From a virus (taxonomy: Duplodnaviria; Heunggongvirae; Uroviricota; Caudoviricetes), in the IMG/VR virus record IMGVR_UViG_2695420676_000008: 10,916 nt of DNA; one strand, 5' to 3'. A program made the translations under genes and the position numbers. The notes under the pieces are model-generated. The model ran no database searches and was not told the origin of the DNA. It saw only the letters and a list, made by a program, of their open reading frames with translations. Below, piece after piece: positions 4,409 through 9,605 of the stretch. Numbering within the stretch: position 1 is the stretch's first letter; every line of letters begins with the position of its first letter.

Positions 4409-4480
4409 GCGCGGCGTTACCGCATACCAATTACGCTTCACTCGAGGCGTTTTTCGTTATGTATAAATAAGGAGCACACC

Positions 4481-4621
4481 ATGCAATATGCCATTGCAGG
4501 GTGGCCTGTTGCTGGCTGCCCTTCCGAATCTTTACTTGAACGAATCACCCGTAAATTACGTGACGGATGGAAACGCCTTATCGACATACTTAATCAGCCA
4601 GGAGTCCCCAAAAATGGATAA
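4481..4621 (+). CDS. cIII: CIII, FtsH-inhibiting regulator stabilising CII (46 aa here)
   Basis: AAGGAG Shine-Dalgarno at 4468..4473, ATG at 4481; translation [46 protein letters not shown] then TAA. Matches lambda CIII but appears to stop about 8 codons earlier than the lambda protein as I recall it. Confidence 0.85.
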   Translation: MQYAIAGWPVAGCPSESLLERITRKLRDGWKRLIDILNQPGVPKNG

Positions 4622-5133: not shown

Positions 5134-5919
5134 ATGAGTACAGCACTCGCAACGCTGGCTGGGAAGCTGGCTGAACGTGTCGGCATGGATTCTGTCGACC
5201 CACAGGAACTGATCACCACTCTTCGCCAGACGGCATTTAAAGGTGATGCCAGCGATGCGCAGTTCATCGCATTACTGATCGTTGCCAACCAGTACGGCCT
5301 TAATCCGTGGACGAAAGAAATTTACGCCTTTCCTGATAAGCAGAATGGCATCGTTCCGGTAGTGGGCGTTGATGGCTGGTCCCGCATCATCAATGAAAAC
5401 CAGCAGTTTGATGGCATGGACTTTGAACAGGACAACGAATCCTGCACATGCCGTATTTACCGCAAGGACCGTAATCATCCGATCTGCGTTACCGAATGGA
5501 TGGATGAATGCCGCCGCGAACCATTCAAAACCCGCGAAGGCAGAGAAATCACGGGGCCGTGGCAGTCGCATCCCAAACGGATGTTACGGCATAAAGCCAT
5601 GATTCAGTGTGCCCGCCTGGCCTTCGGATTTGCTGGTATCTATGACAAGGATGAAGCCGAGCGCATTGTCGAAAATACCGCATACACTGCAGAACGCCAG
5701 CCGGAACGCGACATCACTCCGGTAAACGATGAAACCATGCAGGAGATTAACACTCTGCTGATCGCCCTGGATAAAACATGGGATGACGACTTATTGCCGC
5801 TCTGTTCCCAGATATTTCGCCGCGACATTCGCGCATCGTCAGAACTGACACAGGCCGAAGCAGTGAAAGCTCTTGGATTCCTGAAACAGAAAGCCGCAGA
5901 GCAGAAGGTGGCAGCATGA
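5134..5919 (+). CDS. bet: Bet (Red-beta) single-strand annealing recombinase, 261 aa
   Basis: ORF track 5134..5919; [38 protein letters not shown]... matches lambda Bet as recalled. Confidence 0.95.
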
Positions 5920-6596
5920 CACCGGACATTATCCTGCAGCGTACCGGGATCGACGTGAGAGCTGTCGAACAGGGGGATGATGCGTGGCACAAATTACGGC
6001 TCGGCGTCATCACAGCTTCAGAAGTTCATAACGTAATAGCAAAACCCCGCTCCGGAAAAAAGTGGCCTGACATGAAAATGTCCTACTTCCACACCCTGCT
6101 TGCTGAGGTTTGCACCGGTGTGGCTCCGGAAGTTAACGCTAAAGCGCTGGCCTGGGGAAAACAGTACGAGAACGACGCCAGAGCCCTGTTTGAGTTCACT
6201 TCCGGCGTGAATGTTACTGAATCACCGATCATCTATCGCGACGAAAGTATGCGTACCGCCTGCTCTCCCGATGGTTTATGCAGTGACGGCAACGGCCTTG
6301 AACTGAAATGCCCGTTTACCTCCCGGGATTTCATGAAGTTCCGGCTCGGTGGTTTCGAGGCCATAAAGTCAGCTTACATGGCCCAGGTGCAGTACAGCAT
6401 GTGGGTGACGCGAAAAGATGCCTGGTACTTTGCCAACTATGACCCGCGTATGAAGCGTGAAGGACTGCATTATGTCGTGGTTGAGCGGGATGAAAAGTAC
6501 ATGGCGAGTTTTGACGAGATGGTGCCGGAGTTCATCGAAAAAATGGACGAGGCACTGGCTGAAATTGGTTTTGTATTTGGGGAGCAATGGCGATGA
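5916..6596 (+). CDS. exo: Exo (Red-alpha) 5'-3' dsDNA exonuclease, 226 aa
   Basis: ORF track 5916..6596; [43 protein letters not shown]... matches lambda Exo. 4-nt ATGA overlap with bet, as in lambda. Confidence 0.95.
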
Positions 6597-7884: not shown

Positions 7885-8628
7885 ATGATTAACAATATTG
7901 CAAATCAGTCTTCGTTTCCGGCTGCAACAATTGACAGCCAGATGCTGTTGAAAATGGTTAATGAGGCGCGGAGACTGTGAGGCGAAAAAGAAGTACGCAA
8001 CAACGACTTCATTGCACGCATCAAAGATGAGCTTGAGGGGGAGGGTTACGAAATTTTCGTAACCCCCATGGATAAGAAAAAAGGCGGAGCGGATCAGGTG
8101 GTTATAGTGATGACCTACAAGCAAGCCCTGCGCGTCGCCGCACGTGAGTCGAAAGCCGTCCGTCGTTCGCTGGTCGACAAACTTGAATCAATGCAACAGC
8201 AGTTGCAACAAAAAACGACCACGAAGAAATCACCGGATGGCCTTGAAGAATTCCGTAAGGCACGCGCATTGAAAATGACCGTCGACACAATGAAAGACCT
8301 CTTCGACTTCCTCCCTCACCTCGCACCGGAAGCTAAACAGGTCGTTGCCGCCAGCCTGATTAATCCCGTCGTCGGCTTTAGTGCAATCCCTCTTCCGGTC
8401 ATTGATGAACATCACTACTCTGCGTCGGAGGTTGGCACCATGCTTGGCATTTCAGCCAACAAGGTAGGGCGCATTGCCAACACCTACATGCTCAAAACAG
8501 AAAAGTACGGGAAGTGGTTCATCGACAAATCGGCGCACAGTGACAAGCAGGTCGAGACATTTCGCTACAACGAGGCGGGAGTGCACAAGATCGAGGAACT
8601 CATCGAAGGAGAACGAAAGGCTGCATGA
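7885..8628 (+). pseudogene. Antirepressor/Rha-like regulatory protein gene interrupted by an in-frame TGA at 7978..7980 (the ORF track calls only the downstream part, 8068..8628)
   Basis: ATG at 7885 has a good Shine-Dalgarno (AAAGGACAG) and is in the same frame as ORF 8068..8628. The frame is open for 247 codons except for one TGA after codon 31 (..NEARRL*GEKEVRNNDFIARIKDEL..). The internal ATG at 8068 has no Shine-Dalgarno. The C-terminal half has an antirepressor-like character (tentative). Confidence 0.55.
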
Positions 8629-8642
8629 TTTTGACAAGATAG

Positions 8643-8665
8643 TTTTCCCCAAATCTGGGGGAAAA
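8643..8665. repeat. Perfect 8-bp inverted repeat (hairpin) just after the stop of the antirepressor-like gene
   Basis: TTTTCCCC aaatctg GGGGAAAA; no U-tract follows on either strand, so it is not a canonical intrinsic terminator. Confidence 0.4.
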
Positions 8666-8707
8666 GACCGAATGGCGCGGCTTACAGCAAGATAAAGACC
8701 ACATGAT

Positions 8708-8737
8708 TTGACAAATCCGCATTAACGGGGCTATATT
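8708..8737 (+). promoter_or_regulatory. Candidate sigma70 promoter upstream of the AntA-like gene
   Basis: -35 TTGACA (8708..8713), 18-bp spacer, -10 TATATT (8732..8737); predicted start near 8744. Confidence 0.45.
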
Positions 8738-8775
8738 CCGCTTCATGGTGCTGAACACACCTTGCAAAGCGGAAA

Positions 8776-8805
8776 CCGCACCCGTCAGTCATGCGGCTTT
8801 TTTAT
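8776..8805 (+). terminator. Candidate intrinsic terminator or attenuator about 35 to 60 nt downstream of the predicted promoter
   Basis: CCGCA ... TGCGG stem (5 bp, 11-nt loop) followed by CTTTTTTAT. Alternative small stem GCGG aaa CCGC just upstream. Confidence 0.4.
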
Positions 8806-8950
8806 GTCCATTTCTCAGATATGGTCGGGTAGCGCGTATACCGAAAAACAACCGAAAGGTTAAGGATACGGGCCGACTTTGCACGGTGTTCAAGTACCTG
8901 ACCGCCCTGCTGAACACAGGGCTATCTGAACAAATGCAAAGGACATAAAA

Positions 8951-9574
8951 ATGACCAGTCAACTCATCCCCGTATTCAACGGCACTATCGCCAACGAAAC
9001 AGCCCTACTCTGCAATGCCCGCGATCTGCATGCTTTTTTAGGCGTGAAAAAGGTGTTTGCGGCATGGATTACAAATCGCATTTCAGAATACGAATTCATT
9101 GAAAATCAAGACTATATTTTGCTTTCCAATTTGGGAAAGCAAACATCTGGTAGAGGCGGTCACAACCGCAAGGATTACCACCTCACCCTCGACACAGCCA
9201 AAGAGCTGGCAATGGTCGAGCGCAACGAAAAAGGCCGCCAGATACGCCGATACTTCATCGAGTGCGAAAAGAAACTTCGCAGCATGCAACCAGCGCAGCA
9301 ATTCACAGACGAGGAAATCATCCTCCTCTGCTACATGCAGGTACAGATGGAGAAAGCACAGGACATCAGCAAACGCCTGTATCCGATATTGAAGGAACTG
9401 AACTCATCATACTCGAGCAAGCTGTATGACATCGCGTTTGAGACTTTCTACACGGTGACGAAAAACAGAGACGCACTGCTCAGGGAGGCGACACGACTTG
9501 ACCAGACAAGCGCCCTTTTCGAACGGGCAAGACCAATGCTGAAAAGCCTTCGGGCGAGACAATTCGAATTTTAA
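8951..9574 (+). CDS. AntA-domain antirepressor-like protein (207 aa)
   Basis: ORF track 8951..9574; AAAGGA Shine-Dalgarno 7 nt upstream. N-terminal region (DLHAFLGVKKVFAAWITNRISEYEFIENQDY...GGHNRKDYHLTLDTAKELAMV) fits the AntA/AntB antirepressor domain pattern as recalled. Confidence 0.75.
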   Translation: MTSQLIPVFNGTIANETALLCNARDLHAFLGVKKVFAAWITNRISEYEFIENQDYILLSNLGKQTSGRGGHNRKDYHLTLDTAKELAMVERNEKGRQIRRYFIECEKKLRSMQPAQQFTDEEIILLCYMQVQMEKAQDISKRLYPILKELNSSYSSKLYDIAFETFYTVTKNRDALLREATRLDQTSALFERARPMLKSLRARQFEF

Positions 9575-9580
9575 TCATCA

Positions 9581-9605
9581 AAGGAGCTTCGGCTCCTTTT
9601 TTGTT
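9581..9605 (+). terminator. Rho-independent terminator after the AntA-like gene
   Basis: AAGGAGC ttcg GCTCCTT followed by TTTTGTT: 7-bp stem with a UUCG tetraloop and a T-rich tail. Confidence 0.7.

Follow-up and report, generated by a model that had tools for sequence, protein, structure and literature searches.

An sRNA-Xcc1-family RNA between co-varying boxes in the leader of an AntA-type antirepressor gene: a probable antisense RNA switch in a lambdoid Escherichia coli prophage

The subject of this work is the leader of an antirepressor-type gene (8951-9574) in the tailed-phage record IMGVR_UViG_2695420676_000008. The window, that is, the whole stretch of 10,916 nt that was analysed, is the PL arm of a lambdoid E. 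coli prophage, with the leader and its gene on the + strand. The leader contains two short hairpins with the same CTGAACA loop on different stems, and a structured RNA of the sRNA-Xcc1 family is encoded between them. The elements of the region are listed below; the hairpins, the leader terminator and the downstream target were read directly from the sequence.

8708-8737, + strand: sigma-70-type promoter, TTGACA (8708-8713), 18-nt spacer, TATATT (8732-8737); 11 of 12 consensus matches
8747-8761, + strand: hairpin 1, stem strands GGTG (8747-8750) and CACC (8758-8761), loop CTGAACA (8751-8757), which is box a1
8763-8772, + strand: box b1, TGCAAAG (8763-8769), complement of b' CUUUGCA, followed by CGG
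8776-8803, + strand: intrinsic terminator, CCGCA (8776-8780) and TGCGG (8792-8796), T6 at 8798-8803
8823-8911, + strand only: sRNA-Xcc1-family RNA (RF02221), 69.3 bits against a gathering score of 53, E = 3e-11
8877-8883, + strand: segment b', CUUUGCA, in the second-hairpin loop ACUUUGCA, complementary to b1 and b2
8886-8894, + strand: segment a', GUGUUCAAG, reaching from the end of the second hairpin into the junction that precedes the closing stem, with complementarity to the CTGAACA(C) boxes
8904-8922, + strand: hairpin 2, GCCCTG (8904-8909) and CAGGGC (8917-8922), loop CTGAACA (8910-8916)
8926-8943, + strand: downstream two-box target, a2 CTGAACA (8926-8932), AA, b2 TGCAAAG (8935-8941)
8951-9574, + strand: 207-aa antirepressor-type protein, AntA N-terminal domain plus P22AR_C (Pfam, PHROG)
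9580-9605, + strand: terminator closing the module, AAAGGAGCTTCGGCTCCTTT plus T-run (terminator scan)

The promoter, both hairpins and the terminator-like hairpin with its T6 tract had been noted in a preliminary description of the region and are all present; the promoter is the top promoter-like site of the whole window in a promoter scan, and transcription is predicted to start near 8744. That description overlooked the 89-nt RNA lying between the leader terminator and hairpin 2, the third CTGAACA, the repeated TGCAAAG and the central complements of both boxes, CTTTGCA (8877-8883) and GTGTTCA (8886-8892). The RNA covers the family model completely (positions 1-87 of 87), and the Rfam alignment folds it into a three-way junction with a 9-bp closing stem (8823-8831 with 8895-8903), a first hairpin at 8835-8870, a second hairpin at 8872-8887 (GCCG / CGGU) and the 3' tail GCCCUGCU. 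Its two recognition segments, b' and the a' stretch GUGUUCA (8886-8892), are exact complements of b1/a1 on one side and of b2/a2 on the other. Upstream, the two-box site CTGAACAC..TGCAAAG extends over 8751-8769, where CTGAACAC is the loop of hairpin 1 plus its 3' strand and TGCAAAG begins 4 nt further on; the extended a1 complement TGAACAC (8752-8758) pairs with a', and through the CGG after b1 the complementarity continues into the 5' strand of the second hairpin of the RNA. Downstream, hairpin 2 is built on the 3' tail of the RNA and displays an a-box copy as its loop, and the third CTGAACA (8926-8932) lies outside any hairpin, the two hairpin loops being two of the three copies of one of the two boxes. 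Moreover, b2 overlaps the Shine-Dalgarno sequence AAGGA (8939-8943), 8 nt before the ATG at 8951.

In the minimum-energy fold of 8744-8950, a calculation that the preliminary description had suggested, a1-b1 is paired with b'-a', and the start region 3' of hairpin 2 is predicted to be unstructured; a value of -30.6 kcal/mol was calculated for 8744-8775 paired with the 3' half of the RNA. No promoter-like hexamers were seen by eye between the leader T-run and 8823, which is consistent with the RNA being processed from a longer transcript.

The probability of such an arrangement arising by chance was estimated with 5000 dinucleotide-preserving shuffles of 8738-8950. A 7-mer was present at least three times in 1.3% of the shuffles, and at least two different k-mers arranged as flank, central complement and flank occurred in 0.4%, against four such k-mers observed. 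The comparative evidence is much stronger than this within-window test. Close relatives of the leader and of its AntA gene, taken from E. coli and from viral contigs, have a near-identical scaffold but different boxes, all copies of which change together. In fact, at least 12 distinct b specificities are found on near-identical scaffolds in enteric prophages, the b' segment being hypervariable and its own flanks always matching it, as in the following sets (upstream and downstream box / RNA loop, with the handles of the individual loci).

Window: TGCAAAG / CTTTGCA
L002: ATACAAG / CTTGTAT
L013: TCGAAAG / CTTTCGA
L003: GCGATAG / CTATCGC
L008: AATATAGG / CCTATATT
L018: ACAAACAG / CTGTTTGT
L019: ATCTATG / CATAGAT
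L021: AAATAAG / CTTATTT
L030: ACGTCAG / CTGACG
L045: CCCAAAAG / CTTTTGGG
L080: CTCAGTG / CACTGAG

The a-box behaves likewise, its loop variants (CTGAACA, CTCAAAA, CTCGAAA, GTCGAAA and others) co-varying with a'; both hairpin loops and the linear copy of L003 read C/TTCAAAA with TTTTGAG in the RNA junction, and the CTCGAAA box of L045 is accompanied by the a' segment UUUCGAG. When the RNA recognition regions of 22 enteric leaders were combined with their translation-initiation regions, cognate pairs had a mean energy of -21.1 kcal/mol and non-cognate pairs one of -12.0 (standard deviation 3.5), and the cognate start region was the best partner for 16 of the 22 leaders and among the top three for all 22. 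This co-variation, which includes a second box that lies outside the hairpins, over the Shine-Dalgarno sequence, points to recognition of RNA by RNA.

A survey of the family by pattern scan, with one genome per species and with the scaffold parsed independently of the flanks, gave 120 loci; the 80 listed by title came from gamma-, beta-, alpha- and delta-proteobacteria, with a single Holophaga and a single Chitinophagaceae assembly in addition. For the comparison of cognate with non-cognate pairs 88 distinct specificities were kept, a box being counted as present when the flank held a perfect complement of b' or a' of 7 nt or more, with these frequencies over the 88.

b1 (upstream): cognate 81%, non-cognate 3.5%
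a1 (upstream): cognate 73%, non-cognate 3.0%
b2 (downstream): cognate 48%, non-cognate 2.5%
a2 (downstream): cognate 28%, non-cognate 2.9%

The intermolecular pairs were judged by these tests; column-wise covariation of b' with b2 is hampered by register shifts due to loop length and by the splitting of loops in MAFFT alignments. The geometry is likewise maintained: a lies 5' of b with a 3-5-nt spacer, mirroring the order b', 4-5-nt stem strand, a' in the RNA; b1 is located 4-5 nt 3' of a1 and about 80 nt 5' of the RNA across the family; and the end of b2 falls 5-11 nt before the start codon in 32 of the 39 loci that combine a b2 of 7 nt or more with a called open reading frame (ORF). Two hairpins with one loop and different stems, the trait that had first drawn attention to the window, recur in the family: 78% of the 88 loci have an upstream hairpin with an a-box as part of its loop (4% for non-cognate pairs), and 31% (1.3%) have such a hairpin directly 3' of the RNA. 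A scan of viral contigs for the target pattern CTGAACAN{1,5}TGCAAAG returned, among the matches listed, single and chance-like ones.

The intramolecular structure of the RNA is also conserved. In the alignment of 22 leaders the closing stem is 95% paired, with four pairs changed on both sides, and the inner helix of the first hairpin is 100% paired. The covariation score of the RNA helices was 0.161, compared with 0.092 in shuffles (0 of 500 reached 0.161), and fell to 0.034-0.098 when the partners were slid; only intramolecular helices were counted, and those other than the closing stem and this inner helix are blurred by the MAFFT alignment. RNAalifold recovered 11 pairs from a MAFFT alignment of 35 scaffolds, and RF02221 was found at the equal position in related loci.

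As for the leader upstream of the RNA, its layout (promoter, boxes at 8751-8769, terminator and RNA from 8823) is conserved in related leaders, with TTGACA-type -35 hexamers at the equal relative position, Xanthomonas included. The terminator stem is 92% paired and its T-run invariant in the 22-leader alignment; the stem sequence varies by lineage and the loop motif and T-run are retained. The loop comprises 11 nt (8781-8791) and contains CCCGTCAG, and the terminator was absent from the automatic scan because that scan allows loops of at most 8 nt. A motif like CCCGTCAG or CCCGATAG is kept in the terminator loop from E. coli to Pasteurellaceae and Xanthomonas (L045, L086, L111 and others), and such conservation suggests that the loop may be recognised by something, beyond a plain terminator role. 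The promoter, the paired stem and the invariant T-run support the promoter-proximal, terminator-bounded transcript of about 60 nt that the preliminary description had proposed; by analogy, 8744-8803 would be an IsrK-like short leader RNA ended at T6.

Such an organization recalls several classical phage systems. The C4 RNA is reportedly processed by RNase P and associated with Rho-dependent polarity. According to the review PMC12197685, C4 of phages P1 and P7 pairs around the ribosome-binding site of the ant operon, thereby blocking antirepressor synthesis, and P1/P7 heteroimmunity stems from differences between the boxes. The CI RNA of P4, in turn, is described in PMC4825925 as being processed from a leader and as terminating transcription prematurely by pairing with the flanking seqA and seqC. 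In Gifsy-1 the isrK promoter gives rise to a terminated short RNA and to a read-through mRNA, which is translationally inactive since the IsrK region pairs with a structured region further downstream. Processing of this mRNA releases STnc1160, about 80 nt long, and the antirepressor-like anrP is activated when short IsrK is provided in trans (PMC4825925).

As in C4 and CI, the RNA of the window is embedded in the leader of an antirepressor gene, one recognition segment forms the second-hairpin loop and the other the junction after it, and the exposed a'/b' match pairs of boxes on both sides (a1b1, corresponding to seqA, and a2b2, corresponding to seqC), with b2 on the ribosome-binding site; as in the P1/P7 C4 RNAs, the boxes of related elements differ through compensatory changes. 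Like the IsrK region, the leader has a promoter-proximal short RNA that bears the upstream boxes, an intrinsic terminator, a structured RNA next to it and an antirepressor-like gene 3', and its predicted fold pairs the short-RNA region with the structured RNA as does the experimentally established inactive 'structure A' of Gifsy-1 isrK-orf45 (PMC4825925). Activation by the short RNA is known for IsrK only. Moreover, unlike Gifsy-1, where orf45 and translational coupling are invoked, the window has a 67-aa leader ORF that is not conserved; this ORF (8745-8948) was rejected as a gene or leader peptide, its frame and length not being maintained in 21 related leaders and no Pfam match being found.

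The literature on sRNA-Xcc1 follows another line. The RNA was first found in Xanthomonas campestris, where Northern blot and rapid amplification of cDNA ends showed a discrete 88-nt species (PMC2996969), and has been described as trans-acting, linked to virulence and controlled by HrpG/HrpX, as part of an integron cassette 5' of symE, and 5' of an ORF6N gene in an APSE phage (PMC2996969; bioRxiv 10.1101/2025.06.18.660453; 10.1101/2020.03.17.996009). Nothing in the accessible literature ties sRNA-Xcc1 to flanking complementary boxes or to C4; a full-text search with the RNA's own sequence gave no match, and the text of a paper on small RNAs of enterohaemorrhagic E. coli (PMC4104026) makes no mention of antirepressor, C4, IsrK or Rfam. 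The RNA of the window is a full-length, above-threshold member with the same three-way-junction fold, and Xanthomonas loci share the leader of promoter, a1-hairpin, b1 and terminator before the RNA. Unlike the copies treated in that literature, the one in the window precedes an AntA-type antirepressor gene in an E. coli Stx2a-type prophage and, unlike most Xanthomonas-type loci, it has downstream boxes over the Shine-Dalgarno sequence.

The Rfam consensus structures of sRNA-Xcc1 and C4 share a closing stem, a first hairpin and a second hairpin GCCG(G)...C(C)GGU with b' as its loop, after which come the U-rich junction that is a' and the CaCCC tail. Unlike C4, with a closing stem of 17 bp, the RNA of the window has one of 9 bp, and its long first hairpin contains conserved AAUACAA...GAAUA internal loops; in Rfam, sRNA-Xcc1 belongs to no clan and C4 to clan CL00128. 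The RNA is filed under sRNA-Xcc1, and the cassette would, by analogy, work like a C4/CI-IsrK module without being a member of the C4 family.

The two kinds of leader are interchangeable at one position before AntA, ORF6N and BRO genes. In fact, AntA homologues about 72% identical are preceded by isrK (RF01394) and C4 (RF01695) where closer homologues have the sRNA-Xcc1 leader, at matching positions (C4 at 1367-1451 and sRNA-Xcc1 at 1370-1461, before an AntA gene at 1501). In other E. coli prophages (L001 and L002, 1540-2750) the two kinds adjoin each other in the nin region, an isrK plus C4 leader preceding an ORF6N gene and an sRNA-Xcc1 leader preceding the adjacent BRO gene; since the cassette of the window lies next to xis-int, this kind of cassette has been inserted at different lambdoid sites. 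The ORF6N leader of these prophages matches the Rfam models isrK, c4-a1b1 and C4, and its parts are arranged as in the sRNA-Xcc1 leader: a promoter, a hairpin whose loop shows ATTGGAAC, a terminator, the C4 RNA and a further hairpin carrying ATTGGAAC. The loop of the second hairpin of this C4 RNA (UCGGUUUC) and its junction (GUUCCAAC) are complementary to the boxes, and the second box, GAAACC within TTTAGAAACC, is complementary to the C4 loop and lies between the last hairpin and the start codon. C4-type leaders likewise have a2 in a hairpin analogous to hairpin 2.

Taken together, 8705-9605 is read as a self-contained regulatory cassette acting by RNA-RNA pairing, to which a probability of about 0.72 is given. 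The hairpin loops are most likely docking sites for the antisense RNA encoded between them, and the cassette is probably, by analogy with P1 C4 and Salmonella IsrK, an RNA switch that keeps the antirepressor gene untranslated. The riboregulatory leader for this gene that had been envisaged at the outset is supported by the RNA family match, the co-varying boxes and the position of b2 on the Shine-Dalgarno sequence.

The mechanism proposed is as follows. The promoter would fire constitutively or in the lysogen, most transcripts stopping at the T6 terminator (about 8744-8803) and some reading through. From the read-through transcript the 89-nt RNA (8823-8911) would probably be cut as a stable small RNA, as are P1 C4, P4 CI and STnc1160, exposing b' in the hairpin loop and a' in the adjacent junction. 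These segments would pair with a2-b2 over the ribosome-binding site, so that translation would be blocked and Ant kept silent, for example in the lysogen. For a1/b1 three roles may be considered, namely sequestration of a'/b' in cis within the unprocessed transcript, action in trans as a decoy relieving repression, as with short IsrK, or antisense-dependent termination at the leader terminator, as in P4. The box sequences would set the specificity of the switch, and for this reason boxes would differ between related phages.

Several results weigh against this reading. The leader terminator has a short stem (5 bp, with the 11-nt loop), and RNAfold, applied to the short RNA by itself, favours another hairpin, GCGG (8769-8772) / AAA / CCGC (8776-8779), which excludes the terminator stem and whose GCGG overlaps the end of b1. 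No signal of an RNA strand was found in the interior mismatches flanked by pairing (G-U 5 and A-C 12 of 73) and, without such an asymmetry, the evidence of pairing rests on exact Watson-Crick seeds, which would also be expected from an inverted repeat in DNA. Around half of the family, mostly Xanthomonas and relatives, keep a1/b1 and the terminator with no detectable b2/a2 near the downstream gene; Shine-Dalgarno occlusion is therefore not the sole function in the family and perhaps not the ancestral one. Furthermore, a search of 8600-9000 with the Rfam models C4 (RF01695), isrK (RF01394) and c4-a1b1 gave no match at E <= 10, so the kinship with C4 is architectural and not a demonstrated homology; genuine C4 RNAs of related loci score 61-75 bits.

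The loci that dispense with the downstream boxes lend some weight to the possibility that attenuation of the P4-CI kind is primary, the antisense RNA acting on nascent a1/b1 to stop transcription at 8798-8803 and the pairing at the Shine-Dalgarno sequence being secondary. Since Xanthomonas-type members retain promoter, a1/b1, terminator and RNA, usually without b2/a2, the upstream interaction matters on its own; four loci from Xanthomonas, Rhodanobacter and Luteimonas (L086, L088, L104 and L147) have this full upstream half. Also in favour are the account of premature termination through seqA and seqC in P4 (PMC4825925) and the CGG after b1, which lengthens the pairing of the RNA and forms part of the GCGG that otherwise pairs with CCGC, in L012-type leaders as well as in the window. 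The GCGG-AAA-CCGC hairpin may thus be an antisense-controlled anti-terminator: antisense RNA bound to b1-CGG might, speculatively, free the terminator from it, in those leaders and not in all lineages, the alternative pairing not being conserved in L045-type or Xanthomonas-type leaders. Nevertheless, where b2 is present it is placed very precisely over the Shine-Dalgarno sequence, which favours translational control in the window. Attenuation as the primary step is accordingly a tentative, rather unlikely option; it is compatible with the translational switch, and the two are not mutually exclusive.

The short RNA of 8744-8803 might instead be mainly a trans-acting small RNA or anti-small-RNA with targets among the host transcripts, in the manner of AgvB and AsxR, which are prophage-encoded; its likeness to the downstream boxes would then be incidental to the control of ant. 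Its strong promoter and a terminator with a U-tail are typical of Hfq-binding small RNAs, IsrK binds Hfq according to its Rfam description, and prophages of enterohaemorrhagic E. coli encode many such RNAs (PMC4104026, as reviewed in PMC12197685). The variable boxes, however, track the cognate antisense RNA in 73-81% of the loci, which suggests a target within the cassette and makes a host-directed role improbable; no host target came to light either, no search aimed at one having been made.

Much further down in probability is the recognition of the CTGAACA loops by a protein of the boxB/N or coat-protein type, which the preliminary description had taken as the meaning of identical loops on different stems. 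The window does resemble such operators, since its stem-loops are short, have a defined loop and belong to an early transcript of a phage, and N-type antitermination is presumably used elsewhere in the same operon. In those systems, however, loops are conserved for the protein, whereas here CTGAACA is not kept in relatives, where its conservation had been set as a check beforehand: the loop changes even among close relatives, and every copy tracks the complementary RNA segment between the hairpins. Moreover, a second co-varying box lies outside the hairpins and the third CTGAACA is not in one. The cassette is also followed by many unrelated proteins and found in non-phage contexts such as integron cassettes (bioRxiv 10.1101/2025.06.18.660453), so that no constant protein partner is apparent. 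At the level of sequence comparison the protein reading appears already largely refuted.

Least probable of all is that the boxes are double-stranded operators or recombination sites since, although inverted DNA copies would yield the same exact complementarity and the G-U versus A-C comparison is unbiased, the boxes lie in a transcribed leader between promoter and gene, the central copies fall exactly in the single-stranded loop and junction of a covariation-supported fold matched on the + strand only, promoter and terminator share its orientation, b2 is locked at Shine-Dalgarno distance, there is experimental precedent for the RNA systems, and hypervariable boxes beside proteins of many families would require a DNA-binding partner to co-evolve each time. 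The candidates rejected (ALTERNATIVES) thus comprise protein-bound loops (not conserved), a leader peptide, transfer RNA or transfer-messenger RNA, of which a search of the window found none, and DNA operators.

The genes that follow the RNA are mostly of antirepressor type: 3' of 48 representative sRNA-Xcc1 copies Bro-N was found 8 times, KilA-N 5, Rha 4, AntA 3, ORF6N 2 and P22_AR_N once, the same copies also preceding the SymE toxin (3), HTH_3 (3) and unknowns. In Xanthomonas-type loci the downstream ORF is often acidic, of about 200-250 aa, with the start MS.F..DD.E..GYFLPEDSQ.RL and no Pfam domain. Some elements carry two sRNA-Xcc1 cassettes, as L045 (836-925 and 1376-1461) and L052 (840-924 and 1375-1460), in both of which the AntA gene after the first cassette is reduced to its 5' part and joined to the promoter of the next cassette. 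L195 has two copies about 1.8 kb apart, each matching its own flanking boxes, and L113 two on opposite strands, the b' loops differing within each element. Differing cassettes of this kind suggest orthogonal locks within one genome.

Regarding the surroundings of the cassette, 8700-8960 (261 bp queried) shows 100% identity with Stx2a-converting phages, Stx2a_WGPS6 and Lyz12581Vzw among them, and the intergenic region 8629-8950 is matched at least partly in 351 of 5426 complete E. coli genomes; among the matches listed, the full-length ones carry no annotated feature and some partial ones lie under annotated genes. The gene 8951-9574 itself matches Pfam AntA (1.6e-26) and P22_AR_C (1.9e-08) and PHROG 377, 'anti-repressor Ant' (3.4e-93), and xis and then int lie 3' of it. 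Other features of the window are these.

4468-4526: lambda cIII thermoregulator RNA (RF01804, 88.5 bits)
5916-6596: exo
between exo and the antirepressor-family remnant: DksA/TraR zinc-finger gene
7885-8628: antirepressor-family gene remnant, directly 5' of the intergenic region (PHROG 1726, 9.9e-82)

The cIII match confirms, as far as sequence similarity goes, the context of a lambda-like PL operon, and the cassette thus sits in the PL arm of a lambdoid, Stx2a-type prophage. The remnant is 70% identical over 240 aa to an intact homologue in L003, has an in-frame stop at about codon 32 and is open only from 8068 to 8628; it looks like the decayed member of a tandem pair of antirepressor cassettes. 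Just 5' of the promoter lies an 84-bp block (8637-8720) that about 255 E. coli genomes share, with roughly 93% identity, ahead of several different leader types. It contains a perfect palindrome, a TTTTCCCCCAAATCTGGGGGAAAA-like hairpin (8643-8665), and CCGAATGGCGCGGCTTACAGCAAGATAA, and could be a terminator of the upstream gene, an UP element or a regulator site.

Antirepressors decide whether a prophage stays silent or is switched on, including the prophages of Shiga-toxin phages. The present results suggest that Ant synthesis in Stx2a phages is gated by a sequence-programmable RNA-RNA lock instead of a protein operator. The RNA family itself has an Rfam entry, and the logic of C4, CI and IsrK is classical; what seems new relative to the accessible literature is the finding of sRNA-Xcc1 in a C4-type cassette with co-varying flanking boxes. 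This ties the family to the C4/CI/IsrK paradigm, offers a testable function for RNAs annotated during 15 years as a trans-acting small RNA of unknown mechanism, and would account for their presence before antirepressor-type and toxin genes across Proteobacteria. In addition, the natural orthogonal box sets are possible ready-made parts for synthetic translational control.

In a wider sense, the chances seem evenly balanced that sRNA-Xcc1 RNAs are not free-standing trans-acting virulence RNAs and are instead the central element of programmable antisense 'immunity' cassettes built on a second, very widespread scaffold, either an analogue or a distant relative of C4/CI. Every such cassette would then be a three-RNA switch composed of a decoy or attenuator RNA (a1/b1), a processed antisense RNA (b'/a') and a target (a2/b2) on the Shine-Dalgarno sequence. 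If this is true, the 7-9-nt hypervariable boxes would give many orthogonal specificities, by which co-resident prophages, integron cassettes and islands would each gate their own AntA, Bro-N, KilA-N, ORF6N, Rha or SymE gene without cross-talk, and the literature on 'virulence' small RNAs in Xanthomonas and Xylella would have to be re-interpreted.

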